DNA from: Candidatus Caccoplasma merdipullorum
GTDB taxonomy: Bacteria > Bacteroidota > Bacteroidia > Bacteroidales > G3-4614
DNA: 63,124 nt
Assembly (NCBI GenBank): GCA_017694415.1
Contig: JADIMW010000076.1
Coordinates: 1-63,124, forward strand
Direction of reading: 5' to 3'
The notes under the pieces are model-generated. The model was given only the letters and a program-made list of their open reading frames with translations. It was not told the origin of the DNA and searched no databases. Position numbers and translations under genes: made by a program. Shown here in pieces: positions 3,439 through 58,629 of this stretch. Every line of letters begins with the position of its first letter. The first letter of the stretch is position 1.

Positions 3439-3462
3439 CCCTCTACTAGCAACACATCTGAT

Positions 3463-4543: not shown

Positions 4544-4561
4544 ACCTCAAAGCCCATAAAG

Positions 4562-4606: not shown

Positions 4607-4633
4607 GTTTGAATGTTCTATTATTCGAAGGGG

Positions 4634-5667: not shown

Positions 5668-5677
5668 ATCTTTTCTT

Positions 5678-6832: not shown

Positions 6833-6871
6833 TATAAAAAAATCCGCTTCGGTTTTATTCCGAAACGGATT
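6833..6871 (-). terminator. Rho-independent terminator of the GH2 gene
   Basis: On the minus strand there is a 12-bp stem, aauccguuucgg / ccgaagcggauu (one G-U pair), with a 7-nt loop, followed by a U-run. Confidence 0.7.
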
Positions 6872-6913
6872 CTTTTGTCTGGAGCCAAAGGGTTTTTGCC
6901 CTTTTCGGTTGTG

Positions 6914-11800
<4,887 letters not shown>

Positions 11801-18377: not shown

Positions 18378-18516
18378 ATGCTTATGATTATTATGTTATT
18401 ATATTGTTATTCCGTAAGTTTTCCAGTCCTCCTCTTTCAGGGATAGACGAGAGCAAATATAATACTTTTTTGCTAATGGGTGTGTTTTTATTATGAATAA
18501 TACCACAGGGGGATTT

Positions 18517-19959: not shown

Positions 19960-20014
19960 CTTTGTTTTCTGCTCTGTTATTCTGTTTCTGCGGGTTATTA
20001 TCGTTTAGCCTGCA

Positions 20015-20965: not shown

Positions 20966-20976
20966 CTGTTGCGGGG

Positions 20977-23036: not shown

Positions 23037-23038
23037 AT

Positions 23039-42950: not shown

Positions 42951-43273
42951 GATTTTCGGTTTATATGTGTATTTTTATCGTCGCTGTACTTGTTGCTTCT
43001 GCGTTTATGCCATCCTGCGCACTCTTTTCGAGAAACAAATATACTAATTGCGGACTATTGTTTTTATAATTTTTTACCCTCTATGTTCTTTATGTTATGA
43101 TAATTCGCAATATTCATACAGTAAATTTATTGACGCATGATGTAATTATTGTCGCAAAATATCTGTTTTATAATTTACACCCCTTTTCTTTACAATAAAA
43201 AATACAGCGTTTGTTTTTTATATTATACCAATCTGAAACAGCGACTTTTCCAGCAATAACGCCTCGGAACCGG

Positions 43274-43354
43274 GTGTTCATTTAAACAATTTACTTTACG
43301 AATATATTTTTTTACTAAATGAACACTATCGTATCGCTTATATCCCTATATTTG
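43274..43354 (+). promoter_or_regulatory. Candidate promoter/operator of the TM-AraC gene
   Basis: Perfect 11-bp inverted repeat gtgttcattta (43274-43284) / taaatgaacac (43316-43326). A TAnnTTTG match, tatatttg, follows at 43347-43354, 126 nt upstream of the ATG at 43480. Confidence 0.35.
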
Positions 43355-43479
43355 TTATCGAAGAGGAATTTTTGATAACTATAAAACTTATACGCCGATT
43401 TTAACACAATATCGTATTATGAACATAGAGTGTAGAGTGAAATCGGGGTTGTTTTGTTTTTGTTTCGTATATAAGTATC

Positions 43480-44565
43480 ATGGTTGATAACGGTCATTAT
43501 TATTATTATTTCATCGTTGGAATGGCTGTCGCTTTTTTCGGGATAATGGGCGTTATGAACTTATGGCAGCCGGAAAACCGACTGCGGAAAATTCTCGGCG
43601 GGATACTTGTTTTCTGGATGGTTCAGCATATAGTATCGGTCTGTTTTATTTCGGACTTCTATTCCAACAACAGATATTTCAGCAGAATAATCAATGCTTT
43701 CGATATGACAGCCACTCCTACCTGTTGTTTCTTGCTGGTGGAGTTATGCAAACCCGGCTGGCTGACTTGGCGTAAGGTTGTGTATAACGAACTCCCGTTC
43801 GTTATTCTCGGCTTGGCATTTATAATGCTGGATAATGTTCTTTGGTATTATGCTCTTGTGGGATTTTTTGTTGCATACAGTATTACCGTTACTTTTTTTA
43901 TCGTACATTTTATAACCGAATACAACAAATTCCTAAAAGCTCACTTCTCGTACGACGAAAATATTAACTTGAGGTGGCTATATGCCGTACTGGCTACATT
44001 CATAGTCCTGATGCTGGTTTATGCCGCGTGCAGTTTATACGATACTGCTGTCGGCGACAGCGTTTATATTGCAGGTTCTATTATCGGGTGGGCAATGATT
44101 TGTTATTTTATCCAACGGCAGGAATCGGTTTTACTTGAACTCGACCCTGTTAAGGAGGAAGGGAATGATGACAAGGAGGTATGGCCGGATTGCGAAGTTC
44201 CCCGCAACCTCGCAAAATTGATACAGGAACGTTTTATCGAACCGCAACTGTTTTTAAACCCTCAATTAAAACTCGGAGACATGGTGCAGGCCATAGGGAC
44301 AAACCGTACTTACATGAGCCGGTATCTGAACGACATATTGAAAACGAACTTTTACGATTATATTAATGGCCTGAGACTGAAATACGCACAAAAACTTATC
44401 GAACAGTCGCAATACAGCATTAAGGCCATCGCCGCAATCGCGGGCTTTAACAGCTATTCTACTTTCAGACGCTCTTTTATCGCCACTTACAAGCAATCTC
44501 CTCAAGAATACAGAAACAACATACAACAGATAAATTATGAACGAACAGCAAAGAAACCAATATAA
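43480..44565 (+). CDS. AraC-family transcriptional regulator with an N-terminal polytopic membrane domain
   Basis: The N-terminal ~200 aa are hydrophobic with about 6 TM segments. The C-terminal HTH_18/AraC domain has LGDMVQAIGTNRTYMSRYLN... and IAAIAGFNSYSTFRRSFIATYKQSPQEYR. Confidence 0.8.
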   Translation: MVDNGHYYYYFIVGMAVAFFGIMGVMNLWQPENRLRKILGGILVFWMVQHIVSVCFISDFYSNNRYFSRIINAFDMTATPTCCFLLVELCKPGWLTWRKVVYNELPFVILGLAFIMLDNVLWYYALVGFFVAYSITVTFFIVHFITEYNKFLKAHFSYDENINLRWLYAVLATFIVLMLVYAACSLYDTAVGDSVYIAGSIIGWAMICYFIQRQESVLLELDPVKEEGNDDKEVWPDCEVPRNLAKLIQERFIEPQLFLNPQLKLGDMVQAIGTNRTYMSRYLNDILKTNFYDYINGLRLKYAQKLIEQSQYSIKAIAAIAGFNSYSTFRRSFIATYKQSPQEYRNNIQQINYERTAKKPI

Positions 44566-45544
44566 AGAGAAAGAAGAGGCTTTGAGTAAAACACAAAGCT
44601 GCTCGCATGAACACCGCAAACTGATATGCGGCAACTGCGGCGCGACTTACGACGACGGCGACCTGTTCTGCCCTGAGTGCGGGAACAGGCTCGGCGGCAG
44701 GAAATGTCCGAATTGTCATGCCGAAATAACCGCAACTTGCGAAATTTGCCCTAAATGCGGAAAACCTACCGACTTGGGACATTGCTCGTTCTGCGGAGCG
44801 GAGTTCGAAGGGGATGAACCGTTTTGCGGAGAGTGCGGCTCGCCGCGGGCGGGAATTGTATGTCCCGATTGCGGCACAAAATCGTTCCGCTCGTTCTGTC
44901 CCAACTGCAACAGGCCACTGAACGACAATGCCATGATGGCAATGGAACAGGCGAAAAACGACCCTAAATATCAACGGGTTCTCAGCATTAACAAGGAAAT
45001 GGCCGAAATGGAGGAATACCTTATCAGTTTTAAAAATGAAATTGAAAAGGCTATTGCCGAAGCGGAGGCCGAGATGGATGCTCCCGATGTTCCGGGTCTT
45101 AGTGCCGAGGGAGAGGCTTTACAGGCCAAATATGCCGAATTGATGAAATTGCTGGGTAACCAGCCTAATAATATGCCGCAGCCGAATACCAAGGCTGCAC
45201 GGCCTAAAGAATCGGTAAAGCGCAAGCGCGATTTGAAACTGAAGTTTGCCGATGCCGATAAAATAATGGAGGCATATAAGGCTAAGGCCGCAGAAATGCA
45301 GTCGGCATTGAAAGAGATGCTTCCCGACGCCGACATGACTCCTGCTCAACAGCGCGATTATGCTTGCGCCAGAAAAGTTCCTGTAATAATCAGGGAAAAA
45401 GAGGAGAAGAAGACATGGTGGGTTTGCAACTACTGCGGATGTTATCATCGCCAACCTTCGGAATGTGCCGAACCGTGGCAGGGCGGGACATGGCTTACCG
45501 AAGAAATCGTGGTAGAGAAAAAGATATGGCAATATATGGACTAA
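44537..45544 (+). CDS. Multi-zinc-ribbon coiled-coil protein (four tandem CxxC...CxxC ribbons, a coiled coil, and a C-terminal Cys/Trp-rich motif)
   Basis: Ribbons: CGNCG..CPECG, CPNCH..CPKCG, CSFCG..CGECG and CPDCG..CPNCN (aa 31-125). A K/E/A-rich helical middle follows. The tail is WWVCNYCGCYHRQPSECAEPWQGGTW. The ATG overlaps the AraC gene end by 29 nt. Confidence 0.75.
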   Translation: MNEQQRNQYKEKEEALSKTQSCSHEHRKLICGNCGATYDDGDLFCPECGNRLGGRKCPNCHAEITATCEICPKCGKPTDLGHCSFCGAEFEGDEPFCGECGSPRAGIVCPDCGTKSFRSFCPNCNRPLNDNAMMAMEQAKNDPKYQRVLSINKEMAEMEEYLISFKNEIEKAIAEAEAEMDAPDVPGLSAEGEALQAKYAELMKLLGNQPNNMPQPNTKAARPKESVKRKRDLKLKFADADKIMEAYKAKAAEMQSALKEMLPDADMTPAQQRDYACARKVPVIIREKEEKKTWWVCNYCGCYHRQPSECAEPWQGGTWLTEEIVVEKKIWQYMD

Positions 45545-45560
45545 TCTAAATTTTACTATA

Positions 45561-48500
45561 ATGTCGAGTACAATACGTCCTGACGGGACTCTACGTTCTC
45601 CGTCCGACAAAAAGAACAATGGCGGCACACAACGCCCGAACAACGATATAAAACCTTTTGACGACGAAAAAGCCGCTCAATCGGGTACGCAACGCCCTGC
45701 GGCAACGGGCAACCGTCCGCAACAATCCGGTACGCAACGCCCGGATAGCGGTATCAAGCCTTTCGACGGCGGGAACTCTTCTCAGTCGGGTACACAACGC
45801 CCTGCGGCAACGGGCAACCGTCCGCAACAATCCGGCACGCAACGCCCGGGCAGCGGTATCAAGCCTTTCGACGGCGGGAACTCTTCTCAATCGGGAACAA
45901 AGCGTCCTGCAACGGCAGACGAGCAGTCGAAGAAATCGGGTACGCAACGCCCTTCGTTAGACAAAGACAAACAACAGGCAGCTAATAAGCAACAGGTTAA
46001 AGCCGCAGATATAAAAGTGCTTAAACGGGATGATGAATCGTCTGCAAAGGAGTTCGTGCTGAATGGCGTCGTTTATACTGTCGAAGGGCTTATATCGTCT
46101 TCGACGGGAGAGGCCGAGGTGTATAAATTGAGCAAAGGGGGTAATTTGTACGCGTTGAAACTTTATTACTGCGGGTATTCTCCCGACCCTGAAGTGATAA
46201 AGATTCTTAAGGGGATTACCGGTACGGGATTTCTTGTGGATATTATCGATGCCGGTACATGGACTTCTCCGCAGGGGGAGGTGCGCGATTATGAATTGCA
46301 GCCTTATTACAGCGGCGGAGAACTGACGGCTGGAGCGATGAAAAACAAGGCCGAGGTTTTAAAAGCTACTGCTGCGGGGATGATTATGGCGGTAAAGGTA
46401 GCTCACGACCATAATATCTTGCATAAGGATATTAAACCGGGAAATTTCTTCTATTGCGACGAGAGCCATTCTCAAATTATTTTGGCGGATTTCGGTATCG
46501 CGTCGGCATTTAAGCGCGACAGCTCCGGGACAATGATTCCGCTTAAGGCTTATGCGCAATGGAGAACGAAGATTTATGCGGCTCCTGAAATATATACGGC
46601 CATAGACGGGGAGATAGAATATCCCGACGAGAAAAGCGATTATTATTCGCTCGGCATGTCGCTGCTTACCTTGTGGATTGGGGAAAAACCGTTCGAGAAT
46701 ATCGACGAACGCGCGATGATACGTCTGAAACGCGGGGAGAGCGGGACTCTTCCCTACCCCGACGATATGCCGCAACAATTGCTGCATCTGATAAAGGGAC
46801 TGACTGTTCCCAACCCTGAAAAGCGTTGGGGATTCAACGAATTTGAGCGATGGGCGAGAGGCGAGAATGTCCCCGCGGAGGATAATTCACGCCCGTCGGC
46901 AAGCGGACTGAATATTCTTTACAACGGTTCGAAAAATCAAGTCGCTACTTCGAAGGAAGAACTGGCCGCCTTTATGATGGATGATACGAAACTTGCCGAA
47001 CAATACTTGTATAGCGGAAAGATATCGAACTGGATGCTGGAGGCGGGTTATCCCGAAGTGCAAATTCAGATAGATGAAATTATAAATAAACTTTATCCTA
47101 AATCGCGGTACAGCGGAGTAATGGCTGTTTGCTACCTGCTCGATGCCGGGCTGCCGTTTATCGGGATAAAGGGGGACAAACTGAATACCAATGCGGAGAT
47201 TGCCGATGATATAGCCAACAACCCCGATGAATATCAGAAATCGCTCGTTAATGCCGATGCTCCGCTCTATGTGTTTTTCAATGCGAACGGTATTAACCTC
47301 GCCGACAAGTTTCTGCCTATTTTCAAGAAGAATTCCTGGCACGCCGTATGGCAACTCGTTTTTACGCTCGACCCTGCCCACCCGTTTCCTTACAATAATC
47401 CGGAATCGAAAATATTCCGCTGGTGCGATTCGGTAGAGGAGATTATCGACGCTTATGCTTCAGGCCCGATGGATAAATTTACCGATTTGGGTTATCGTAA
47501 CCGGTTCAACACTTATTGCGAACTTATGCTCGGCGATGCGTTCTTCTTATGGCTGGCTCACCGCGACCCGGCTTTAGCAGGCAAGATTAAGAGCAAACTC
47601 TCCGGCGAAAAGGATACGAAGGGGCATCTTATTTACTATCTGCTTTACCTCCTCGACCCTGAACTGCCTTATGAACTCGATAAAAATGCCGACAGCAAAC
47701 ATTTCAACGCCGCACAAATAGGTGTTATGGTCAACACCGATTTACTGATGTATTATATTGCAGGGCGCGAAGAGGGGTACGACAAGTTCGAAAAGAATCT
47801 CGAATCGGCAAACATGCTTGTCGACTGCCGCGATAACAGAATATACTACTATTTGAAGAGTAAGGACGTTTACAAAGACAAACTCGATTATATCTATTAT
47901 TGTTTCGACCTCGAATCGAAAGACAACAAACGGAAAGCGGGACCTTATGATGTCAATATCGCAATATTCAAAGCTATCAAGGCTCTGGCCGGCGATACGT
48001 TCTACTTCTTTCCGAAAAGCGGGAATAGCGTTTCATCGCTCGACGAATTGAAAGATGTGCCTATGGATGAGCAACAATATGAATTGCAAAACGGATTGTT
48101 GAGACATTGGCTGGCCGTACAGTTCCAGGAAGACCCGTTTGCAGACCTTTCGGAAGAGTATTCTTACGAGAATCTGCTGGCTGAATATACCATAGCTCTT
48201 TCCGAAATAGACCCCGGAATTGAAGAACTGCAACGTTTCAACGATGCTTGCGATGATATACAGGGCAGGGTTGACAAGATAAAGAGGAATATCCGAAGTA
48301 TTCGGATAATAAGAGGAGTATGGTATCTCCTCGTTGCACTGCCCCTGCTGCTGATTGGCACAGCGTATTTTATTTGGGGCGTCGAATCGCAATTGACTTC
48401 CGTTATCTCGTGGAAATGGGTTTGGCTGCCGATATTGTCGCTGGCTATACCGCTGCGTTTTCTGCAAATCGTTCCCGCCATCGAGAATGGGTTTACTTCG

Positions 48501-49214
48501 CTTTTCGGCGAAAAACTGGGGGATGCTCTTACCTACCACCGCTGGATTACCTCCGTTTTAATAGCTGCCGTTCCGATTCTGCTTTTTAAGGCAATAGATG
48601 AATGGGGCGGAGAGTACGGTTTTATCTTTATGTCTGTTATTTGCCTCGCTGTTTTATGGGTGCAGTTTTACAAGACAATATTGTCATGCAGACTCTATAT
48701 TAAGTCTTACGACAATGAAATAAATCCGGATGTCGAAGCCGGCACTATCGAACCGCTTTTCTACGCATGGAAAGACAAGGATTCGGATGCGCCTTTTGAA
48801 TCTTCGATAGAAGACGACCAGACATTTTACAACAATGCTCTCGGCGCGATACGCAGAACTACGCTACGGAAAATTTTCAGCGGACTGGTTTATGTTATTC
48901 TTATTTTCTCCTTATGGAGCATTACGTCGCCGGCAAGCACAAAACTGATGCAGCAATATTGCCCGGGTTTTTATGAAATGGTAAGGGAGAGCATGGAGGG
49001 TAGCGCCGCCCAAACCTCGACATATCAGGTCATAAACGTCAAAAGTTCTTTGATGGTACGAGAGAAACCGACTACAAGTTCAACTGCCATCGGTTCGCTG
49101 CGCAACGGACAAAAGATAGAAGTTTATGAAATAGTGGACGGGTTCGCCCGTATCAAATACGGCGACCGCGAGGGGTATGTTAAGGAGACTTACTTGAAAC
49201 TGATTAATGATTAG
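45561..49214 (+). CDS. Transmembrane Hanks-type Ser/Thr protein kinase with a TQRP-repeat N-terminal tail, an unknown ~460-aa central region, ~5 TM helices and a C-terminal SH3b domain
   Basis: Kinase motifs (aa ~165-432): YALKLY (catalytic Lys), HKDIKPGNF (catalytic loop), DFGIA and YAAPEIY. Hydrophobic helices span aa ~915-1125. The C-terminal segment YQVINVKSSLMVREKPTTSSTAIGSLRNGQKIEVYEIVDGFARIKYGDREGYV is SH3_3-like. Confidence 0.85.
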   Translation: MSSTIRPDGTLRSPSDKKNNGGTQRPNNDIKPFDDEKAAQSGTQRPAATGNRPQQSGTQRPDSGIKPFDGGNSSQSGTQRPAATGNRPQQSGTQRPGSGIKPFDGGNSSQSGTKRPATADEQSKKSGTQRPSLDKDKQQAANKQQVKAADIKVLKRDDESSAKEFVLNGVVYTVEGLISSSTGEAEVYKLSKGGNLYALKLYYCGYSPDPEVIKILKGITGTGFLVDIIDAGTWTSPQGEVRDYELQPYYSGGELTAGAMKNKAEVLKATAAGMIMAVKVAHDHNILHKDIKPGNFFYCDESHSQIILADFGIASAFKRDSSGTMIPLKAYAQWRTKIYAAPEIYTAIDGEIEYPDEKSDYYSLGMSLLTLWIGEKPFENIDERAMIRLKRGESGTLPYPDDMPQQLLHLIKGLTVPNPEKRWGFNEFERWARGENVPAEDNSRPSASGLNILYNGSKNQVATSKEELAAFMMDDTKLAEQYLYSGKISNWMLEAGYPEVQIQIDEIINKLYPKSRYSGVMAVCYLLDAGLPFIGIKGDKLNTNAEIADDIANNPDEYQKSLVNADAPLYVFFNANGINLADKFLPIFKKNSWHAVWQLVFTLDPAHPFPYNNPESKIFRWCDSVEEIIDAYASGPMDKFTDLGYRNRFNTYCELMLGDAFFLWLAHRDPALAGKIKSKLSGEKDTKGHLIYYLLYLLDPELPYELDKNADSKHFNAAQIGVMVNTDLLMYYIAGREEGYDKFEKNLESANMLVDCRDNRIYYYLKSKDVYKDKLDYIYYCFDLESKDNKRKAGPYDVNIAIFKAIKALAGDTFYFFPKSGNSVSSLDELKDVPMDEQQYELQNGLLRHWLAVQFQEDPFADLSEEYSYENLLAEYTIALSEIDPGIEELQRFNDACDDIQGRVDKIKRNIRSIRIIRGVWYLLVALPLLLIGTAYFIWGVESQLTSVISWKWVWLPILSLAIPLRFLQIVPAIENGFTSLFGEKLGDALTYHRWITSVLIAAVPILLFKAIDEWGGEYGFIFMSVICLAVLWVQFYKTILSCRLYIKSYDNEINPDVEAGTIEPLFYAWKDKDSDAPFESSIEDDQTFYNNALGAIRRTTLRKIFSGLVYVILIFSLWSITSPASTKLMQQYCPGFYEMVRESMEGSAAQTSTYQVINVKSSLMVREKPTTSSTAIGSLRNGQKIEVYEIVDGFARIKYGDREGYVKETYLKLIND
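45684..45893 (+). repeat. 105-bp in-frame tandem duplication (2 copies, 5 mismatches by my count) inside the kinase N-terminal tail
   Basis: Copy 1 is 45684-45788 and copy 2 is 45789-45893. Each encodes GTQRPAATGNRPQQSGTQRP(D/G)SGIKPFDGGNSSQS. More diverged copies flank them. Confidence 0.9.
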
Positions 49215-49219
49215 GTGTC

Positions 49220-52200
49220 ATGAAATGTAATAATTGTAATACGGATAATCGTCAGGAGGCTCTGTTTTGTAAACATTGCGGAGGGAAACTCGCTCTGCCC
49301 GATACCGACCCGTTTATCGGACTCGTCGGACTTACGGATATTAAACAGCAGATAGCCCAGCTTATTACCACCTTCAATTCTGTGAAGAACAGGGGTGCGA
49401 ATATTACCATCGGGTGCGATACTATTATCATGGGAGCCTCGGGTACCGGCAAGACTCATCTTGCCAACGCTATCGCCAAGGCTCTTTACAGCGCGAATAT
49501 CGTAAAACAGCCGAGGCCGCTAGTTGTGGATGCGGTAGATTGGGATAATTTCGTAAAGGACTGGCAGGAGAATATAAAAAAGGTTCAGGACGGTATTCTT
49601 ATTATAGACAATGTTCAGAAACTTGTTCCGGACGGGTATTCGAAGAATGTTGACAAACTCGATATCTTGTTCAGCGGAATGGACAAGTGGAACGGGAATC
49701 CCATCGTTATAATAACAGGTCTCCCGGACGGATTCAGGGAATATATAGAAGGGAATCCGCAGGTGAGGAACAAGTTTGAGTATTTCTTCCGACTTGAAGA
49801 GTATTCGGCTCAGGAACTTACGGCTATTTGCATAAAGGCTCTGTCGGAAAAATACAAGGTAGGCATAGAAGCCGATGCTTACGGCAAGCTCGAAAGGGTA
49901 ATGATGTTCATTGTCAGGAATAAACCTGAGGGTTGGGGCAACGCTCATGCCGCCCTGAAAATGGCCGATGAGATTTTCTACAACATGGTGCGCCGGGGCG
50001 GAGAAACTGTTTCGTGTGCGGATATCGAGGGTACCGAGTATCGGGACAAGACTTCGGAGGAGATTATGGCGGAACTTGACGAGTTCGTCGGTATCGACAA
50101 TATTCGTACTGAGATAAGGAACTTGATTTCGGAACTAGAATTGAGCAAGGTCCGCTCGAACAAGGACGGCAGCGGCGAGATTAATTCGCATTATATTTTT
50201 TCGGGTAATCCCGGTACGGGCAAAACTACGATAGCTCGCAAAATGGCCGATATTTTCAAAGCTATGGGGGTACTGCCCATAGGGCATCTGGTAGAGGCAG
50301 ACCGCAGCAAACTCGTCGGACAATATGTCGGACAAACGGCAATACAGACAAACAGACTTATAGATAAAGCCATGGGCGGCGTTTTGCTTATAGACGAGGC
50401 TTATACGCTTAATCAGGGGGACAGCGACAATTTCGGACATGAAGCTATCGATACTCTGCTGAAACGACTGGAGGATGACCGCGGGAAGTTCGTATGTATC
50501 GTTGCCGGATATACAAAACAGATGTTCGATTTTATACAGTCGAACCCCGGACTTAAATCGCGCTTTAACAAGGATATTCGCTTTGAGGATTATGACGGGG
50601 GTTCGCTTACGGCGATATTCCGCCAACAGATGGCTTCGAAATCGAAAGAGATGCCCCGGCCGCTGACTTTATCGGACGAGGCGGAACGTAACTTGCGCAA
50701 CTTCTTCGATATGATGTATGCCACCAGAGACAGGAATTTCGGTAATGCAAGGGATGTGCGAAAAGTATTCGAAACAGCCATGTCGCGACAAAGCGCCAGA
50801 CTTACCAAATTGCGTACCGAGGGGCAATTTACTCCCGACATGTTGTTCGTCCTTACCCGCGACGATATTGAAGGGGATGAAAATACACGCGAACTGAATC
50901 TCGACGACATTATGGCTAAAATGGAACGCGAGTTTGTCGGCATGCAATCGGTTAAAGACGCCATGCGGACAATAGGCAAGAAAATGGCTACGAACAGGTT
51001 GAGAATGGAACATGGCGTGGGCGATGCCAAAACTCTTGGCATACATATAAAACTTACGGGTAACCCGGGTACGGGAAAGACCACCGTTGCCAGAACTCTG
51101 GGTGAAATGTTGAAAGCGGTACATGTGCTTCCTACCGATAATGTAATAGAGGTTGACCGCAGCAAGTTGGTTTCGCAGTATGTAGGTGAAACGGCAAAGC
51201 TCGTAAACCAGACCATCGACCGCGCGATGGGGGGTATCTTGTTTGTGGACGAGGCTTATACGTTATCGCAGGATTCGGGCAGCGGCTCGGATTTCGGGAA
51301 GGAGGCTATCGAGACTTTGATGAAACGGATGGAGGACGACAGGGGCAAGTTCGTCTGTATCCTCGCAGGCTACCGCAACGAGATGGATAATTTCATGAGG
51401 GTCAATCCGGGTATAAAGAGCCGCATTACACACCATATCCATATCGAGGATTATTCTCGCGACGAACTGCTGCAGATTTTCAAGAACATGGTGAAGAAGG
51501 AAAAAATGGTTCTTACGCCTGAAGCGGAAGAATTGTCGCGCCGCGCTGTCGATGAAATCGTTTCGGCTAAAAGCAAAGACTTCGGAAATGCCCGGGAAAT
51601 GAGGAAGCTGCTCAATACCACGCTCGACAATCAGGCTAACCGCATTGACAGGCTCGACGGCAATGTTACTAAGGAACAGCTTATAACAATAGAAGCGGAA
51701 GATATTCCGGTTGCAAAACATAAGGATATTGACGAGGAGGAATGTCTGAAGGCTCTCGACAAACTTGTCGGACTCGACGGTGTTAAACAGGAGGTGCGCA
51801 ATCTTGTAAATTACCTGAAGCTGGAAAAGATGCGTGCGGAAGCTCTCGGCAAAAAGTTCGCGGGCATGAGAGACCACTATCTTTTCCTCGGCAACCCGGG
51901 TACGGGAAAAACAACCGTCGCCAGAATAATGGCCGATGTATTCCTGTCGCTTGGCATAACGACGAAGAGCGGCATTGTTGAGGTTGACCGCAGTAAGCTT
52001 GTCGCAAAATACGTGGGTCATACTGCTGAACAAACCAACAACGTAATTGACAGCGCCATGGGCAGCATTCTGTTTATCGATGAGGCCTATACTCTTAATC
52101 AGGGTCCGCAGGACAATTTCGGGAATGAGGCTATCGACACTCTGCTGAAACGTATGGAGGATGACCGCGGCAAGTTCGTATGTATTGCTGCGGGGTATTC

Positions 52201-52549
52201 TTATGAGATGGGCGAGTTCCTCGCTGCCAACTCCGGATTGCAAAGCCGCTTTAACAAAACGATTGTATTCGAGGATTATGATGCTGCTTCGCTCGCTGAA
52301 ATATTCCGCCGCAAGGCTGCCGGAGAGAATTTCACCATGTCGCCCGAAGCTGAATCCGCCATGGTAAACCGCTTTGTCGAACTGTACGAAAACAGGACTC
52401 AAAACTTCGGTAATGCGCGCGAGGTTAATAATGTCTTCCAGAAAGTAAAAGAACGGCAAAGTCAGAGAATTATAGATATGATGATGAAGGGGGGGAGACC
52501 TTCGCCGGCCGACTTGTTGAGTTTTACGCCCGAAGATTTCGCTTTTTAA
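49220..52549 (+). CDS. Zinc-ribbon plus four tandem AAA+ modules (CbxX/CfxQ/SpoVK-like), with the first module degenerate
   Basis: N-terminal ribbon: CNNCN...CKHCG. Walker A motifs are GASGTGKTH (aa 72), GNPGTGKTT (aa 329), GNPGTGKTT (aa 614) and GNPGTGKTT (aa 891). Walker B is LIIDNV in module 1 and L(L/F)(I/V)DEAYTL in modules 2-4. DRGKFVCI(V/L/A)AGY recurs in modules 2-4. Confidence 0.85.
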   Translation: MKCNNCNTDNRQEALFCKHCGGKLALPDTDPFIGLVGLTDIKQQIAQLITTFNSVKNRGANITIGCDTIIMGASGTGKTHLANAIAKALYSANIVKQPRPLVVDAVDWDNFVKDWQENIKKVQDGILIIDNVQKLVPDGYSKNVDKLDILFSGMDKWNGNPIVIITGLPDGFREYIEGNPQVRNKFEYFFRLEEYSAQELTAICIKALSEKYKVGIEADAYGKLERVMMFIVRNKPEGWGNAHAALKMADEIFYNMVRRGGETVSCADIEGTEYRDKTSEEIMAELDEFVGIDNIRTEIRNLISELELSKVRSNKDGSGEINSHYIFSGNPGTGKTTIARKMADIFKAMGVLPIGHLVEADRSKLVGQYVGQTAIQTNRLIDKAMGGVLLIDEAYTLNQGDSDNFGHEAIDTLLKRLEDDRGKFVCIVAGYTKQMFDFIQSNPGLKSRFNKDIRFEDYDGGSLTAIFRQQMASKSKEMPRPLTLSDEAERNLRNFFDMMYATRDRNFGNARDVRKVFETAMSRQSARLTKLRTEGQFTPDMLFVLTRDDIEGDENTRELNLDDIMAKMEREFVGMQSVKDAMRTIGKKMATNRLRMEHGVGDAKTLGIHIKLTGNPGTGKTTVARTLGEMLKAVHVLPTDNVIEVDRSKLVSQYVGETAKLVNQTIDRAMGGILFVDEAYTLSQDSGSGSDFGKEAIETLMKRMEDDRGKFVCILAGYRNEMDNFMRVNPGIKSRITHHIHIEDYSRDELLQIFKNMVKKEKMVLTPEAEELSRRAVDEIVSAKSKDFGNAREMRKLLNTTLDNQANRIDRLDGNVTKEQLITIEAEDIPVAKHKDIDEEECLKALDKLVGLDGVKQEVRNLVNYLKLEKMRAEALGKKFAGMRDHYLFLGNPGTGKTTVARIMADVFLSLGITTKSGIVEVDRSKLVAKYVGHTAEQTNNVIDSAMGSILFIDEAYTLNQGPQDNFGNEAIDTLLKRMEDDRGKFVCIAAGYSYEMGEFLAANSGLQSRFNKTIVFEDYDAASLAEIFRRKAAGENFTMSPEAESAMVNRFVELYENRTQNFGNAREVNNVFQKVKERQSQRIIDMMMKGGRPSPADLLSFTPEDFAF

Positions 52550-52690
52550 AATTACTATTCCGCAATATCGATTTTATATTCAGAATAGTGAAAGAGTGGT
52601 ATTTACAAAGAATTAAAAATATAATGACACCGGAATATAATTGTTCCGAATAAGAACCGCCGGTGTTTAACTTATGATATTTTTTGATTT

Positions 52691-53350
52691 ATGATATGTC
52701 CTAAATGTAAAGCTGATATTCCTGATGATTCCTGGTTCTGCGACCAATGCGGTTGCGAGTTGATGTTTTGCCCTAAATGTAAATCTCCGGCAAAAGGAAA
52801 ACGCTGTACTCAATGCGGCTCGGAACTGGTTACGGGCAAGGAGCTGGGTTTATTCGCGTCTCAACCGGCAACGGCAGCCTCGACGACGCAAGTCCCAAAC
52901 ATTTCTCAACAGCAGAATAATACTACGACGAATATCGACTATAACGATGTATTGAAAAATAACATTTCTGCTCAACCGCAGCCACGGCAACAGGCTCAAC
53001 CGTCCGGTTCTTCTACTTTGCGCGGCTCGTCCGACAGCGCAGGGGGCGTCGATGCGGGTCCTTCCAGACTGGTTATGTTGGATGACCCGTCGAAAGTTGT
53101 GGTGTTTAAGGATAACGGTATTATCGGAAGGACAAACGGAGATTATCTGGATGTTTTTTCGAACCTGCCTTATGTCAGCGGCACGCACGCCAAATTTACA
53201 TTGCACTCGTCGAAGCAATGGCTTATTGCAGACCTCGGTTCGACGAACGGTACGAAATTGCAGAATACCGACTTGATACCTAACAGTAATTATCTGCTTA
53301 AAAAGGGGCAGATTATAGAAATAGGATTCGTTAAATTCAGAGTGGAATGA
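52691..53350 (+). CDS. Double zinc-ribbon plus FHA domain protein
   Basis: N-terminal ribbons CPKCK..CDQCG and CPKCK..CTQCG are followed by a Q/T/S-rich linker. The C-terminal FHA has GIIGRTNGDY...VSGTHAKF...LIADLGSTNGTKL. Confidence 0.85.
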   Translation: MICPKCKADIPDDSWFCDQCGCELMFCPKCKSPAKGKRCTQCGSELVTGKELGLFASQPATAASTTQVPNISQQQNNTTTNIDYNDVLKNNISAQPQPRQQAQPSGSSTLRGSSDSAGGVDAGPSRLVMLDDPSKVVVFKDNGIIGRTNGDYLDVFSNLPYVSGTHAKFTLHSSKQWLIADLGSTNGTKLQNTDLIPNSNYLLKKGQIIEIGFVKFRVE

Positions 53351-54093
53351 AAATCATATACGATGCGGCAAGCGATATGGGGTGCGTACGCTCCAATAAC
53401 GAAGACATGATTCTTATAGACAGGTCTTTCCTGCGCGATGAATCGGCTTCGGGCGAGGTTTTAGTGGATGGCAACAGCAGATTCTGTGCTATTGTTGCAG
53501 ACGGAATGGGAGGAAATAACGGTGGCGAGTTTGCTTCGGATATTGCCTGCCAGGAGTTCGATTCATGGATTAACGATATTCCCTCTAAATTGACTCATGG
53601 GGAGATTCGTGCAAAAGTAAACGAATTTGTACTTAATACTCACACCCTTATAAACTGCAAAGGGGATGAAATGGAGGAATTTAGCGGTATGGGTACCACT
53701 CTCGTCGGCATTTTCTTCTATGAAGGCAGTTCGTATTGGGTCAATATCGGGGATAGCCGCATATATATTTACAGGGACGGCATATTGCGTCAGATTTCAC
53801 GCGACCATTCGATGCGGAACTTGATGAACAATCCGGAACTGCCGGCTAACCTCATTTACAACTCTCTCGGGTCGGGAACCGGCACTGACAGCTTCGCCGA
53901 CTGCGACAATATACCTCTTTTTGAAAATGACTGCATCTTGATTTGTTCGGATGGCCTGAGCGATATGGTCGATGATGAAAAATTAGCTCTTCTGCTTAAA
54001 CAATATGCACCTGCTTCAGCATATGTTTCTTCTGCTAAAGCAGCCGGAGGGGAAGATAACATTTCTGTTATAACCTTATCAATATATAAATAA
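53347..54093 (+). CDS. PP2C-family Ser/Thr protein phosphatase (Stp1/PrpC-like)
   Basis: Motifs are RSNNEDM, VADGMGG, GTTLVG, NIGDSRIY, SDGLSD and GGEDNISVI. The start overlaps the FHA gene stop (ATGA). Confidence 0.9.
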   Translation: MKIIYDAASDMGCVRSNNEDMILIDRSFLRDESASGEVLVDGNSRFCAIVADGMGGNNGGEFASDIACQEFDSWINDIPSKLTHGEIRAKVNEFVLNTHTLINCKGDEMEEFSGMGTTLVGIFFYEGSSYWVNIGDSRIYIYRDGILRQISRDHSMRNLMNNPELPANLIYNSLGSGTGTDSFADCDNIPLFENDCILICSDGLSDMVDDEKLALLLKQYAPASAYVSSAKAAGGEDNISVITLSIYK

Positions 54094-54183
54094 CCTTCTC
54101 CACGCGAATTAGCACTTTCTCGGTGCTTGGTTTATATTTTGAAAAACTTTGAATCAATTAATATGAAAATAGAAATTCCCCGT

Positions 54184-54230
54184 ATGTTTTCTGCTTACGT
54201 CGAGGATTCTCATCGACGTAAGCAAAACAT
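54184..54230. other. Long imperfect hairpin between the PP2C gene and the downstream genes (possible terminator or regulatory structure)
   Basis: atgtttt-ct-gcttacgtcga / tcgacgtaagc-aaaacat gives 11 + 7 bp of stem with a 2-nt bulge and a 9-nt loop. No clean U-tract on the plus strand. Confidence 0.5.
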
Positions 54231-54308
54231 AAACATTTTAAATTTAAACAGCTATGAATTGACCGATTTACCGTAGTTCTAATTTTACAACTTCAAACTC
54301 TTTTTATC

Positions 54309-55214
54309 GTGTATCTGAAAATAAGTCATTGGAAATGTTCGTTGCATGATTGGGACGACTATTACAGTAATGATAACGACAATAAGCAAAATTGTCGTTT
54401 TTGCGAAGATTGTTTTTTCCCTTTAAAGTTGGGGGTAATTGAAAAATACCCGTTTTTCGAAATAACGGAAATAAATGCGACAGACATAGAAGTTTGTCAT
54501 TCCGGCGGAGGACTCGCAAGCTACGGTACTTTCTGCCGTGAGGTGTCGCATGTTATCCCGTCTGCCGACGAAATTGTCAGATATAAAAAAGAAAAAATAT
54601 CCGTAAACTCATCTGTTCAAATTTATTATGGTTTCTGTTACAGCGAATCCGAAACGAGAGATTATTTCGAACTCGAACTGTTAGATGGACCTTGTTCGCG
54701 CAAGACATGGAACATGATGCGGGTACAACACGAAGGGTGTATCATAACCTTTCAGCGCGAGGATATAGTTCCCAACAGCAAATTGAGCGATATTCGCCGA
54801 CGTCCCGACAACTCTGAAATCCCGTGGCTTAATATCAAAATAAAAGAAATTTATACGGAGGGCTTGTCGGTAATGTTCGATAATTTCAATTATATTTATC
54901 ACGTAAAATGCGATGCTCCGATACGGGAAAACGGTGTAACAATATCATTGGTTTCGTGTATCGAACTGTTTGAAAGCGACATTGAAAACGACTTTTTCCG
55001 CTATGAAATCGATATCGATATATGGGAAAATCATGAAAAGGATGCGGATGCAGCTCTTGCAGTGGCTGAAAGCATTGCCGAACAGACCCCGGAGGCTCTC
55101 GAAATTATCGCCCGTTATATGGATATTGCCGATTGTCTTGGGGCTGCCGATGCTCGTGCTTGGCTTGCCGACTATTATGGAACAACAGACTCAAAATACG
55201 ATGCTTATGTGTGA
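54309..55214 (+). CDS. Hypothetical protein (Cys-rich N-terminus, acidic helical C-terminus)
   Basis: 301-aa ORF with only non-ATG starts available (GTG at 54309 or TTG at 54342). I recognise no family. Coding potential is inferred from length and the overlap-coupled downstream gene. Confidence 0.5.
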   Translation: MYLKISHWKCSLHDWDDYYSNDNDNKQNCRFCEDCFFPLKLGVIEKYPFFEITEINATDIEVCHSGGGLASYGTFCREVSHVIPSADEIVRYKKEKISVNSSVQIYYGFCYSESETRDYFELELLDGPCSRKTWNMMRVQHEGCIITFQREDIVPNSKLSDIRRRPDNSEIPWLNIKIKEIYTEGLSVMFDNFNYIYHVKCDAPIRENGVTISLVSCIELFESDIENDFFRYEIDIDIWENHEKDADAALAVAESIAEQTPEALEIIARYMDIADCLGAADARAWLADYYGTTDSKYDAYV

Positions 55215-55872
55215 AGACTGTATTGATATACCTGAATACCGTAAGGAACTGCTTTCGAAAATAGCCGCCTCGCCGGATGATTTGGAAAGCATGGCTGAAT
55301 TGGTATGTGCCGATTGCCTTATCTGCGAGAAGAATGTAAAGGACTTCGGACCTGCATGGAAAAACTCCGTGTTTGTAAACGAAATACTGGAGTATGCTCC
55401 CGTATTGCTGAAGGAGAAAGGAAACGAATATGGCAATATTGTATTCAACGTATGCGATAGAGTGAAAGACGTGCTGTTTAATCACCCGCGCCTGATGGTA
55501 AAGCTGTTAAAACTGGAATTGAAGGCTCTTGATACAAGTAAGGATATTGACGGGGACAAACAGGAAATAAAAAAGGGTATAGAAAAAAAAATAGAGTTTC
55601 TCGAAGTAAATATTAAAAGGGCCGACATGGGGAATCTGGAACAGTGCGAAAATATCGGCATGTTGAAAAGAGACCCGGTGGAATGGACGGCAGAATATGA
55701 AAAAGTTATAGATGAGGCTGAAGAAAAAGCCAATGCCGAACTTGCGGATGTACCTCGCGGTATGGGATTCTGCCATGCTTACTGGCACTCTCTTGCCAAT
55801 ATTCTTTTCGAGGATTACGGTATTGTCTGGCGCAGCCCGGCCATGATGAATCCCGGCGTTATGTTCGACTGA
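55201..55872 (+). CDS. Hypothetical protein with the C-terminal motif GMGFCHAYWHSLANILFEDYGIVWRSPAMMNPGVMFD
   Basis: I chose the ATG at 55201 (MLMCEDC...) within the longer 54970-55872 ORF. It overlaps the upstream stop by 14 nt. Family unknown. Confidence 0.5.
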   Translation: MLMCEDCIDIPEYRKELLSKIAASPDDLESMAELVCADCLICEKNVKDFGPAWKNSVFVNEILEYAPVLLKEKGNEYGNIVFNVCDRVKDVLFNHPRLMVKLLKLELKALDTSKDIDGDKQEIKKGIEKKIEFLEVNIKRADMGNLEQCENIGMLKRDPVEWTAEYEKVIDEAEEKANAELADVPRGMGFCHAYWHSLANILFEDYGIVWRSPAMMNPGVMFD

Positions 55873-56512
55873 TGCGCCTTTTGTACGGTTTTGCCGAAAT
55901 TGCATACGGTCATCTGCAACAACACGGTAGGTTTTAGGGTTTTACAATATGTACGTTTTGACCTTTTTCAATCTGCCAAAATATATACGAAACAATTGTA
56001 CCCATATTAAATAAAGTAAAGGCATAAAGGGTATTCTACAGACCTATAACATACATTTATGTTATTTTTCTCTCTCTTTTGGAATACCTGCTCAATACGA
56101 ACAGGCAAAGACTAAATTTCTCGATGTATTAAAAGCTCTCTGCCTATTCATCGGCCGTTTCATTATCGACCCGACATCGGGAAACCTCTCTGTATCTGCT
56201 TGCAGATTATATGGCATTCTTCCCGTCGCCGAACGGCTGGCGGGGTATTAGGCTCACCCGAAAGAAATTTCGTGGCAGACGGGCAAGCCCGTTGGAGAAT
56301 GGTTGTGGCAAGAACATAACACAATTATTGAAGCGAATTATCGCTAAACTTCCACTTGATTATTAAGGATTTCAACTACCCTTTATCCAAAAAATACAAA
56401 AAAATATAGCCGAATAGCGCTGTATTTTTTAGCCAAAAAAGGTAATTTAATTTAGCCACATATGGAAATTCTAAAATATAGTATTATCTTTGCCCATAAT
56501 CAGTATATAGAT

Positions 56513-57787
56513 ATGAAGACATATAAACCGAGAATCGCGGATAAGGAGTTACAACGAAAGCTAGCAGGTATCGGTGCTGTTTTGATTGAAGGACCTAAAT
56601 GGTGCGGTAAAACTACAACTGCGGAGCAACAGGCGTCCACAATCATCTACATGGACGATCCTTTGTACAAAGAACAGAATCTCCGTATGGCTGATATAAA
56701 TCCGAAAGCGTTGTTGGTCGGAGAATGTCCCATATTGGTAGATGAATGGCAACTTGCTCCCAAATTATGGGATACAATCCGTTTTGAAGTCGATCACCGA
56801 GAAGGCGAAGGTCTTTTTATTTTAACTGGTTCGGCTGTTCCTGCAAAAACAGAAGAAATTCATCATTCAGGAGCAGGTAGATTTGCATGGCTAACTATGC
56901 GTCCCATGAGTTTATACGAGTCGGGGGAATCTTCTGGAGAAGTGAGTTTGGAGGGGATGTTTGAAACTCCAGATAATATAATGGGAATCAACAAATTGTC
57001 GCTTGATGATATTGCTTTTTTAATTTGTCGTGGTGGGTGGCCTCGTGCATCATTGCAAACAGGAGATATTGCGCTGGATCAAGTGAAATACTATTATGAC
57101 GCTGTGACGCGTTCGGATATTTCTCGAGTAGATGGCGTTCGACGCAATCAAGAACGGGCAAAACGATTGATGCGTTCATATGCTCGGCATCAAGGTTCTC
57201 AGGCTCCCATCAGTACTATTGTAGAAGATATGCGAGTGAATGATGAGGAATCAACGGATGTAAAAACAGTTACTTCTTATATTGACGCTCTGAAAAAAAT
57301 TTTTGTCATAGAAGATTCTGTTGCATGGAATCCTAATCTGCGCTCAAAGACAGCTATTCGGACATCTGATACCAGGTACTTTGTTGATCCGTCAATTGCT
57401 GTTGCTGCTTTGGGTCTTGGCCCCAAGGACCTGATTAATGATCTGAATACAATGGGGTTGTTGTTTGAGACGCTTTGCATCCGGGATTTACGCGTATTTG
57501 CGAGCGCTTTAGATGGACAAGTTTATCATTTTCGAGACAAGTACGGCCTCGAATGTGACGCAGTTGTTCATCTGCGCAATGGTAAATTTGGCCTTATCGA
57601 AATAAAACTTGGCGGAGACCAACTTATAGAGCAAGGCGCAACTACCTTAAAAACATTGGCTGCAAAGATAGATACGGATAAAATGAAAGCCCCGTCTTTC
57701 TTAATGGTATTGACGGCTACAGGAAAATTTGCCTATCGACGTGCAGACGGAGTTTATGTGGTTCCTATTGGATGCTTAAAAGACTAA
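56513..57787 (+). CDS. AAA+ ATPase of the AAA_14 / DUF4143 family
   Basis: Start at MKTYKPRIADKELQRKL. Walker A is IEGPKWCGKTT and Walker B is ILVDEWQ. The size and C-terminal region are typical of DUF4143 proteins. Confidence 0.75.
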   Translation: MKTYKPRIADKELQRKLAGIGAVLIEGPKWCGKTTTAEQQASTIIYMDDPLYKEQNLRMADINPKALLVGECPILVDEWQLAPKLWDTIRFEVDHREGEGLFILTGSAVPAKTEEIHHSGAGRFAWLTMRPMSLYESGESSGEVSLEGMFETPDNIMGINKLSLDDIAFLICRGGWPRASLQTGDIALDQVKYYYDAVTRSDISRVDGVRRNQERAKRLMRSYARHQGSQAPISTIVEDMRVNDEESTDVKTVTSYIDALKKIFVIEDSVAWNPNLRSKTAIRTSDTRYFVDPSIAVAALGLGPKDLINDLNTMGLLFETLCIRDLRVFASALDGQVYHFRDKYGLECDAVVHLRNGKFGLIEIKLGGDQLIEQGATTLKTLAAKIDTDKMKAPSFLMVLTATGKFAYRRADGVYVVPIGCLKD

Positions 57788-57795
57788 TAAACGAT

Positions 57796-57972
57796 ATGAC
57801 ACAGATACAACATAACCAACTGGTCTCATTTATATGGAATATTGCTAACGATGTTCTTGTAAACGTATATAACAAGGGGGATTACCGTAAAGTGATTCTC
57901 CCGATGATTGTATTGAGACGCTTCGATGCCGTTTTAGAGGCTACGAAAATTCAGTTTAGTTTAGTCCATTAG
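57796..57972 (+). pseudogene. hsdM: Truncated N-terminal stub (~50 aa) of a type I restriction-modification methyltransferase (HsdM)
   Basis: MTQIQHNQLVSFIWNIANDVLVNVYNKGDYRKVILPMIVLRRFDAVLEATK is the characteristic HsdM N-terminal domain start. The frame then runs into unrelated sequence and a stop. Confidence 0.65.
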
Positions 57973-58547
57973 CTTATATATATGCTAAATCAAAGTAAAC
58001 TATATTTAGGTAGGCATATTTGCTTGTCAGTATGCCTATGGTTATTACGGTAAAAGCGGTTTTGGTTGCCAATAAAAAGGAAGCACAGGCTGAAGAGATA
58101 TCGGGAGTTTTTCTTTTTTGGCTGCAAGTATGTTTACCAATCAATGTCTCTTGGTGCAGAGCGAAGAGTTGTACACGGTAAGGTTCGAACTCCTTTCTTG
58201 TGCAAACAAGTGAAGGGAATGAAACCTAATGAAAATTGAAAAGGTCTGAATTTGCTTTAATTGACGGTTCTGTTTCTATATTATTTCTTAATCAAAGGAG
58301 TGAAAATAATAAAACGTTGATTATATGCAAATTATATATAGAAAACTTACGCTGATTTCAAATTTTCCAGATTTCTGATTAAGGGGCAAGACTTAACGCC
58401 TTATAATTACTATGTGCATTGAATATTTATATTCAACGGTACAAAAGTAGTAAATTTTTATTTATGAAGAAGCCATACGTTTTACATTTTTTTATTATTA
58501 CATGTTCGACAACTTCGGTGTTTCATCATTTTTTATACATGGATACC

Positions 58548-58591
58548 GTATAAAAAGCCGTGCGGCGGTTTATTGGATATCCGCCGCACGG
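58548..58591 (-). terminator. Rho-independent terminator of amtB
   Basis: 11-bp stem ccgtgcggcgg / ccgccgcacgg (58558-58568 and 58581-58591). On the minus strand it is followed by cuuuuua. Confidence 0.6.
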
Positions 58592-58629
58592 GATTGTTTA
58601 TACGTGGTAATCAAATACTGCCCATATTG

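Follow-up and report, generated by a model that had tools for sequence, protein, structure and literature searches.

A conserved five-gene cassette of Bacteroidales encoding a Ser/Thr kinase, FHA and PP2C triad together with a multi-module AAA+ protein

Results

The locus and its eight genes

The DNA analysed in this work, hereafter the window, is a stretch of 63,124 nt of contig JADIMW010000076.1 (assembly GCA_017694415.1) from Candidatus Caccoplasma merdipullorum, in which positions 43480-55872 hold a locus encoding a Ser/Thr protein kinase, an FHA-domain protein, a PP2C phosphatase and a protein with several AAA+ modules. An earlier note on this DNA had described eight tightly packed co-directional genes, and eight open reading frames (ORFs) on the + strand were indeed found, with a re-measured spacing of -29, 16, 5, 141, -4, 215 and -14 nt, negative values being overlaps. 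The genes, named G1 to G8 by position, encode a membrane-anchored AraC-family regulator (G1, 43480-44565), a scaffold-like zinc-ribbon/coiled-coil protein (G2, 44537-45544), an inner-membrane Hanks-type Ser/Thr kinase of 1217 aa (G3, 45561-49214), a protein with a zinc ribbon and four AAA+ modules belonging to the SpoVK/CbbX/EccA clade (G4, 49220-52549), a zinc-ribbon FHA adaptor (G5, 52691-53350), a PP2C phosphatase similar to Stp1/IreP (G6, 53347-54093), a 301-aa protein without family match that starts with GTG (G7, 54309-55214) and an all-helical, TPR-like protein of 223 aa (G8, 55201-55872). As detailed below, G2 to G6 form a core, whereas G1 is a recurrent accessory gene, G7 a clade-restricted one and G8 also accessory. 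In a sister strain (L178), an independent gene caller gave the same eight genes with equal lengths.

When the proteins were searched with hidden Markov models, Pfam agreed with the domains that had been assigned to G1-G6, and no match was obtained for G7 and G8 in Pfam, NCBIfam, PADLOC or in sequence searches of the PDB. Zinc ribbons are carried by three partners (G2, G4 and G5), and a writer, a reader and an eraser of phosphothreonine (pThr) are all encoded, as kinase, FHA protein and PP2C, with their key residues intact in sequence. No vWA/TerY protein was detected among the eight (Pfam, PADLOC). In all these points the description in the earlier note was right.

A five-gene core is conserved in Bacteroidales

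The neighbourhoods of homologous genes were compared in 90 loci, 10 of them fetched via the kinase and 80 via G2. The latter came from a scan of one genome per species with an alignment of 5 G2 sequences, in which 118 species were found to have a G2 relative and 80 were kept; an 8-sequence G2 alignment and an alignment of the kinase central domain were too divergent for search patterns. All five genes G2 to G6 were present together in 79 loci, that is, in each of the 79 adequately covered ones, the remaining 11 being broken by contig ends. Their order was G2-G3-G4-G5-G6 in 75 loci and block-permuted in 4, and the same five genes were found in 10/10 of the kinase-anchored neighbourhoods. The co-occurrence is independent of the anchor used, kinase or G2, and far exceeds what chance would produce. 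What is conserved is a core of five genes, G2-G3-G4-G5-G6, with variable accessory genes; of the eight-gene locus proposed earlier, the G2-G6 part stands as a conserved unit and the set of eight does not, G1 and G8 being recurrent and G7 restricted to close relatives.

The hosts of the 80 kept loci are nearly all Bacteroidales. Bacteroides, Phocaeicola, Prevotella, Barnesiella, Alistipes, Muribaculaceae and Paludibacteraceae are represented among the 79 adequately covered loci, together with others, and the cassette occurs in the cultured type strains Bacteroides cellulosilyticus DSM 14838, B. stercorirosoris DSM 26884, B. timonensis and Phocaeicola barnesiae. Among kinase homologues that keep the long architecture, identity falls from 97% to about 24%, and the G2 family, always adjacent to the kinase, amounts to 266 clusters (50% identity) at E<=1e-10. 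Within Prevotella, the synteny of the cassette is stable. A scan of the species genomes with the kinase as a single protein gave no match, and a scan with the kinase alignment was dominated by generic Hanks kinases, with L004-L006 as the only family members.

Copies or fragments of the cassette were also seen on contigs labelled as Desulfobacteraceae (L006) and as Clostridia, Staphylococcus and Lachnospiraceae metagenome-assembled genomes (MAGs; L113, L157 and L166), which may be mis-binned Bacteroidales or real transfers outside the phylum. No relatives of G2 were found in 2.9 million viral contigs, and a phage-borne origin was rejected on this basis.

The kinase carries a repetitive threonine-rich tail and a membrane region

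In Pfam, G3 matched Pkinase (2e-23) and SH3_3 (5e-11), with five predicted transmembrane (TM) helices between both domains. Residues K200, H288-K-D290-x-K292-x-x-N295, D310-F-G, A-P-E343 and R422 are invariant among 12 homologues (24-57% identity), and the catalytic loop in the window reads H-K-D290-I-K-P-G-N295, as is characteristic of Hanks-type kinases; the Gly-rich loop is atypical (S-T-G-E-A-E-V). As the catalytic residues are invariant, G3 is expected to be an active kinase.

The first 131 residues of G3 (45561-45953, +) form a disordered tail with eight copies of the motif T-x-R-P (seven TQRP/TKRP and one TIRP), which does not appear in the rest of G3 nor in the seven other proteins. 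The tail includes a tandem repeat (45615-45952, +) with a period of 105 nt (35 aa) and about 3 copies that encodes the TQRP units, each 105-nt unit contributing two S-G-T-Q-R-P motifs and one I-K-P-F-D-G-G motif. Kinases from strains with 99% identity are 1182, 1217, 1252 and 1287 aa long and differ by whole 35-aa units only. Most tails of the homologues have Thr-centred repeats of the type [D/G][K/G]-T-x-[R/K/V], and the tail is predicted to be a multi-site pThr docking platform.

Residues 426-920 (46836-48320, +) constitute a family-specific central domain, predicted to be cytoplasmic, that is mostly helical and contains four beta-hairpin-helix units. Its AlphaFold2 (AF2) model is confident (pLDDT 90.7, pTM 0.81), and no fold match (best Foldseek E 0.39, TM-score <0.2) or sequence match was found for it in the PDB. 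The TM region that follows (48300-48929, +) has five predicted helices and a conserved cytoplasmic loop between TM4 and TM5, IEPLFYAWK...F-x-SS. Positive-inside residues precede TM1 and TM5 in the topology prediction and, as the number of helices is odd, the C-terminus lies outside. The kinase domain, the central domain and the TM4-TM5 loop are thus predicted to be cytoplasmic, and the C-terminal SH3_3 (SH3b) domain (49047-49199, +) periplasmic. This last domain is found in the closer relatives only, and it is missing or replaced by another beta-rich domain in the distant kinase homologues.

G4 fuses a degenerate AAA+ module to canonical ones

Four AAA stretches (AAA, 1e-65) and AAA_lid_6 (2e-42) were detected in G4 by Pfam, and its nearest relatives of solved structure in the PDB are CbbX (7e-54) and EccA1 (1.5e-42). 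Both NCBIfam and PDB place the protein with SpoVK/CbbX/EccA, in agreement with its previous assignment as a multi-AAA+ protein of the CbxX/SpoVK type. The N-terminal part (49220-50074, +) contains a zinc ribbon and a degenerate module 1, in which Walker A is intact, Walker B reads IIDN and the YVG pore loop is absent. Modules 2-4 (50075-52549, +) are canonical AAA+ modules with GNPGTGKT, h-h-h-h-DE, the pore loop Y-V-G, A-G-Y at sensor-1, the arginine finger S-R and G-N-A-R at sensor-2. The sampled homologues follow the same scheme, a zinc ribbon, a module 1 dead in its Walker B (D-N/A) wherever detectable and then 2-4 live modules, so that they carry 3-5 modules in total, compared to four in G4.

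A 2024 study (PMC11513918) describes the SpoVK-EccA-like clade as dedicated chaperones whose range of clients is narrow, whose N-terminal domains vary and serve for recruitment, and which have no peptidase as partner; its members are recognised by AAA plus AAA_lid_6, G-Y at sensor-1 and a retained sensor-2 arginine. With A-G-Y and G-N-A-R in modules 2-4, G4 belongs to it. An antisense ORF of 398 aa (51263-52459, -) lies wholly within the G4 gene; in all likelihood it arises mechanically, as an artefact, from the repeats coded on the other strand.

Scaffold, adaptor and phosphatase

G2 matched zinc ribbons of the DZR type (Pfam, 6e-15). Its four N-terminal CxxC...CxxC ribbons are followed by a coiled-coil/acidic linker, and its C-terminus bears a Cys/His cluster with a conserved knuckle W-V-C-N-x-C-G-C-x-H...C...GGTW. 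G5 combines an N-terminal double zinc ribbon (DZR, residues 3-43) with an FHA domain (residues 145-212, 2e-11) in which the pThr-binding residues G-R, S-x-x-H and N-G-T are intact. G6, whose gene overlaps that of G5 by 4 nt, matched PP2C_2 in Pfam (8e-16) and an Stp1-like family in NCBIfam (2e-45), and its metal-binding motifs NNED, DGMGG, SDGLSD and GGEDN are intact. The best NCBIfam matches were FhaB/FipA for G5 and Stp1 for G6, both below cut-off.

The linker of G5 is rich in Ser, Thr and Gln and contains one S-T-L-R-G motif in the window. In 15 of 61 loci, the adaptor linker carries one TxRP copy immediately N-terminal to the FHA domain, and its presence is associated with that of TxRP in the kinase tail (12/9/3/37; Fisher p=4e-5, kinship being ignored in this statistic). 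By analogy, a linker Thr followed by an FHA domain is the arrangement of a GarA-type FHA switch.

Accessory genes

Clustering of the flanking ORFs of the 90 loci yielded several families that accompany the core as same-strand neighbours. G1 has about 6 TM helices followed by a C-terminal HTH_18/AraC domain (6e-17), and its stop overlaps the start of G2 by 29 nt. Full-length homologues of G1 (31-35% identity) are located upstream of the core in 13/90 loci, in 12 of them on the same strand; an initial impression from 3-10 loci that the AraC gene was not conserved was overturned by the 80-locus set.

The most frequent accessory gene is G8, which adjoins the core in 20/90 loci. Its family comprises 108 clusters without Pfam annotation and has an invariant C-terminal motif R-G-M-G-F-C-x-x-Y-W...W-x-S-P...N-P-x-V-x-F-D. 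The AF2 model of G8 (pLDDT 95, pTM 0.90) gave only non-significant matches to TPR-like folds in a structure search. Regarding G7, its C-terminal 165 aa match a gene of 187 aa that occupies the equivalent place in Phocaeicola barnesiae, the closest relative, to which the counterpart is limited, and its N-terminus has a weak similarity (E 0.006) to a 105-aa family that occurs in 5 loci. The idea that G7 belongs to a 164-aa accessory family, present beside the core in 10 loci, was rejected, as no relation was found on comparison.

Proteins with DUF1963/TYPP are encoded beside the core in 16-23 loci; DUF1963 corresponds to the TYPP domain, for which a chaperone-like binding of extended peptides has been predicted (PMC4275035). 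A fusion of an M48 metallopeptidase with TerB was found in 7 loci, a TerB plus TPR protein in 4, Sel1 proteins in 4, and two families with SH3-like and TM segments near the core in 6 loci each; examples of such accessory neighbours are located at L131 8561-9847, L128 6328-8532, L156 6628-8217 and L148 242-1375. The TerB neighbours echo the Ter/TerY-P stress systems.

Two loci have more elaborate surroundings. In L096, a metagenomic relative, the cassette is permuted and a second cluster comes after it (17807-23615). This cluster encodes a protein of 250 aa, three FHA proteins, a caspase-like Peptidase_C14 protein with EF-hand matches and a second kinase, of 522 aa, that strongly matches the PD-T4-6 and mad6 models of defence kinases. 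In L003 (GCA_003575145), a G8-like protein, a DUF1963 protein, a 1557-aa DUF4062-STAND NTPase and a 673-aa protein are encoded upstream (939-9127), and downstream (18764-23360) there is a second multi-AAA+ protein of 1124 aa without zinc ribbon, followed by a tyrosine integrase.

Genomic context and putative promoter

In the window, the locus lies between genes for RuvC, MetH, DAPDH, Lgt and SDR and genes for DUF4143 and Amt. The RuvC-MetH-DAPDH-Lgt-SDR...Amt synteny is retained in a congeneric MAG whose Lgt is 89% identical, but there the position of the cassette is occupied by other genes, including one for an M60 peptidase. As the congener lacks the cassette at the syntenic position, the cassette is accessory at this site.

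The debris that had been reported next to the locus is real, and consists of a DUF4143/AAA_14 ATPase (56462-57787) and a 66-aa N-terminal fragment of HsdM (57772-57972). Downstream of G8 in the sister strain (L178 20417-23759), an N6_N4 DNA methyltransferase of 621 aa and an AAA_15/AAA_21 ATPase are found instead, and the strain-variable stretch in the window corresponds to 55873-58629. As the sister strain has an identical cassette and different downstream genes, the debris was assigned to an adjacent hotspot, and the variable stretch looks like a defence-gene hotspot beside the cassette and not a part of it. Therefore, the defence-island context put forward in the earlier note applies to the downstream hotspot of this species but not in general: the flanks of the 90 loci are mostly housekeeping genes (GidA, MetA, tRNA synthetases, glycoside hydrolases), PADLOC models matched very few of the 107 flank-family representatives, and an enrichment in defence islands was rejected on this qualitative ground. 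Elsewhere in the window, a gene for a 2503-aa SprA, the type IX secretion translocon, is located at 27046-34557 (-), which is ordinary for Bacteroidota.

At a distance of 125 nt from G1, on its upstream side, lies a candidate Bacteroides-type -7 promoter motif, TATATTTG (43347-43354, +), for which the consensus gives weak evidence. No other + strand match occurs in 43036-56485, and no such motif is found on the + strand inside the locus, which gives weak evidence for a putative single transcription unit. An imperfect inverted repeat of 19 nt (43075-43093 and 43416-43434; 84% complementary, 322 nt apart) flanks the motif on both sides, an arrangement that resembles an invertible promoter. Such an inverton found no support, the sister strain L178 having the same orientation. 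A difference in tract length, T7/T9, was seen near the inverted repeat. Scans for sigma-70 promoters and terminators, which are uninformative in Bacteroidota, gave counts no higher than those of shuffled sequences.

Discussion

The results above describe a real and strongly conserved cassette, apparently undescribed so far, in which a pThr triad is coupled to an AAA+ ATPase. Our preferred interpretation, to which we assign a probability of about one half, is that the locus encodes a pThr switch anchored at the inner membrane that would control a dedicated remodelling chaperone of the SpoVK/CbbX class. In the mechanism that we infer, a membrane or envelope-proximal cue would activate the kinase G3, which would phosphorylate the Thr of the [S/D][G/K]-T-x-R-P repeats in its own N-terminal tail and probably also the single motif copy in the G5 linker. 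These pThr sites would be read by the adaptor G5, and the zinc ribbons of G5, G4 and the coiled-coil scaffold G2 could assemble a complex, by which the multi-module AAA+ protein would be brought to the membrane. There, the three active, pore-loop-bearing modules of G4 would act on a limited set of clients by threading and remodelling them, until the PP2C G6 erased the marks and reset the system. The accessory proteins (G1, G8, TYPP/DUF1963, Sel1, M48-TerB and SH3-TM proteins) may tune the choice of client or the output. Of this scheme, the intact catalytic and binding residues of kinase, AAA+ protein, FHA protein and PP2C, the predicted topology, the strict gene linkage and the distribution of the motif come from the sequences, and the phosphorylation targets, the part played by the zinc ribbons, the client and the stimulus are inferred.

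Regarding the biological role of such a switch, a membrane or envelope-linked function in stress or quality control is slightly favoured, because of the five TM helices and the SH3b domain of G3, the accessory TM-AraC, M48+TerB, TerB+TPR, SH3-TM and TYPP/DUF1963 proteins, and surroundings that are mainly housekeeping. Several points weigh against the preferred interpretation. No client or effector is identifiable at the locus, and the patchy distribution of an accessory cassette would suit a conflict system no less than a stress pathway. The SH3b domain cannot be a universal sensor, as part of the family lacks it. Only about a third of the loci have the tail repeat as TxRP, the others showing variants such as DKTLK or DRTIVV, and the statistic for its co-occurrence in kinase tail and adaptor linker is uncorrected for shared ancestry. 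Furthermore, the zinc ribbons could bind nucleic acid or membrane rather than protein, and chains of 3, 4 or 5 AAA+ modules alike would have to close into rings.

A more specific version can be put forward only tentatively. In it, the cassette would represent a class of bacterial machine not recognised before: the kinase would write multi-site pThr tags on its copy-variable tail and the zinc-ribbon FHA adaptor would deliver the tagged substrate or complex to a concatenated, partly inactivated motor of the SpoVK type, as a pThr counterpart of the phosphoarginine (pArg)-ClpC pathway; the cassette would then be a new anti-phage/abortive-infection system or a membrane-protein quality-control switch of gut Bacteroidales.

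A phosphorylation-gated anti-phage defence of the abortive-infection type is the main alternative, and it is possible, with the odds against it. Infection would be sensed by the kinase, which might also serve as the effector, as a whole or through its multi-TM region, unless the AAA+ unfoldase has this part, and FHA and PP2C proteins would set the threshold. Such a function would agree with the accessory distribution, with the congeneric MAG that has other genes at the cassette site, and with the strain-variable defence hotspot that the cassette abuts in this species, although the flanks of the 90 loci are chiefly housekeeping, with few PADLOC matches among the 107 flank-family representatives, and synteny is stable within Prevotella. 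It would also agree with the DUF4062-STAND protein and integrase of L003 and with the FHA/caspase/kinase cluster of L096, and accessory genes, module number and repeat number are all variable. The best PADLOC matches of the kinase are the defence kinases mad6 (6e-26) and PD-T4-6, but neither PADLOC nor NCBIfam assigned the locus to a system, and a nuclease, a TIR domain, a pore toxin or any other usual effector is absent. Kinase/phosphatase modules such as KKP (PMC11341870) and TerY-P-like triads (PMC11090510) are known as defences. The lack of relatives in the 2.9 million viral contigs is neutral in this respect.

A transcriptional pathway, in which the signal would be transmitted through the membrane-bound AraC regulator G1 and the AAA+ protein would be auxiliary, appears unlikely. 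G1 is translationally coupled to G2 through the 29-nt overlap and recurs upstream of the core in 13 loci, but no G1-like gene lies beside the core in 77/90 loci, and it is the AAA+ protein, the zinc-ribbon scaffold and the FHA adaptor that are universal, not the regulator.

It is very improbable that the cassette corresponds to an already named system, such as a TerY-P triad, the threonine-phosphorylation pathway of the type VI secretion system (T6SS) or the PknB/PstP/FhaA cell-division cluster. The logic of kinase plus PP2C, with or without FHA, is certainly common, and FhaB/FipA and Stp1 are the closest NCBIfam models of G5 and G6, albeit below cut-off. Nevertheless, vWA/TerY, a zinc ribbon on the kinase, T6SS genes, a ClpV-type ATPase, PASTA domains and FtsW/PBP neighbours are all absent, and the earlier note was correct in setting the locus apart from pknB loci, T6SS PpkA/PppA/Fha and TerY-P, whose defining features were looked for and not found. 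No named defence system covers the locus either: PADLOC gave only generic matches to kinase and AAA domains, mad6 aligning with residues 266-428 of G3 only and IetA with single AAA modules, and NCBIfam has no specific model for it, the scores against their cut-offs being 62.9/460 for MAD6, 77.6/510 for IteA and 18.7/990 for PglW. G2, the FHA protein G5 and the PP2C G6 had no match to the defence models of PADLOC-DB v2, and no full-length, above-threshold match to MADS, PD-T4-6, Stk2, Mokosh, IetAS or BREX PglW was obtained. No description of the cassette was found in the searchable full-text literature, subscription-only papers lying outside this search. Two outcomes that the earlier note would have taken as refuting, homologues scattered in other genomes and wholesale assignment to a named system, did not occur.

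Least probable of all, a chance juxtaposition of neighbours or of unrelated expression units, for which internal promoters in the 141- and 215-nt gaps could be invoked, is refuted for the five core genes by the 79/79 co-occurrence across Bacteroidales families with kinase identities down to about 25%, by reading frames that overlap or nearly abut and by the absence of Bacteroides-type promoter motifs inside the locus, and may still apply to G7.

Triads of Ser/Thr kinase, FHA and PP2C are among the least understood signalling devices of Bacteroidota, the dominant Gram-negative phylum of the human gut. With an AAA+ output hard-wired to the triad, the path from phosphorylation to mechanical work becomes directly testable, and genetics is feasible because the cassette is present in cultured type strains. 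Two confidently modelled parts, the central domain of G3 and G8, lack structural relatives, and the AAA+ design, a dead first module plus 2-4 live ones in a single chain, is unusual. The length of the docking repeat differs between strains, which suggests a tunable signalling gain. Should the cassette be an immune system, it would represent a new effector logic; should it be a stress chaperone, the 'dedicated chaperone' concept of SpoVK/CbbX/EccA would be extended to control by phosphorylation.

Comparison with known systems

When compared with the TerY-P triad, the cassette shares a PP2C partner (G6, PP2C_2 8e-16), zinc ribbons within the system and, in some accessory proteins, TerB domains. 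In contrast, no vWA/TerY was found in the eight proteins nor in the top families of the 107 flank-family representatives, G3 ends in TM helices plus SH3_3 instead of a C-terminal zinc ribbon/OB fold, an FHA adaptor and a multi-AAA+ protein are obligatory, and PADLOC gave no TerY-P match. Some CoCoNuT operons with TerY-P additionally encode tandem ATPases of the SpoVK family (PMC11090510), but these operons lack the FHA adaptor, the zinc-ribbon scaffold and a kinase of the cassette type. The PknB/PstP/FhaA-FhaB cluster differs in its PASTA domains, which the cassette lacks (PknB_PASTA 50.8 vs. a cut-off of 450), and in its FtsW/PBP neighbours, also missing here.

Modules 2-4 of G4 share AAA_lid_6, the G-Y sensor-1, the second arginine (GNAR) and the pore loop with the SpoVK/CbbX/EccA clade. 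However, known members are single-module homohexamers, whereas proteins of the G4 type have 3-5 fused modules behind a zinc ribbon, with a first module that is hydrolysis-dead by sequence, and are tied to a kinase/FHA/PP2C set.

In Firmicutes, the McsB/ClpC/YwlE system uses pArg tagging to deliver proteins to an AAA+ unfoldase. The logic of a writer, an AAA+-linked reader and an eraser is alike, by analogy only, as that system employs pArg, the N-domain of ClpC as reader and coupling to ClpP, whereas the cassette would use pThr and has a separate FHA adaptor and no universal peptidase. Also by analogy only, G5 resembles GarA/OdhI of Actinobacteria, small FHA proteins with an acceptor Thr N-terminal to the FHA domain that allows self-binding; G5 differs in its additional double zinc ribbon and in being linked to an AAA+ protein and not to enzymes of the tricarboxylic acid cycle.

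The functionally closest system is the PpkA/Fha1/PppA pathway of the T6SS. In the H1-T6SS of P. aeruginosa, PpkA phosphorylates Fha1, which is needed to recruit the AAA+ protein ClpV1, and PppA reverses this phosphorylation. The cassette has no T6SS genes, structural families of the kind of TssB/C, Hcp, VgrG and TssM being absent from the window flanks and from the flank families of the 90 loci, and its AAA+ protein comes from a different clade, G4 being of the concatenated SpoVK/CbbX type and not of the ClpV/ClpB type. In addition, it has zinc ribbons on three partners, including a zinc-ribbon coiled-coil scaffold, and its docking sites are apparently on the tail of the kinase itself. Both share a membrane Hanks kinase with an extracytoplasmic domain, an FHA reader and a PP2C eraser, all encoded together, and an AAA+ protein as the output, which in the cassette would likewise be recruited.

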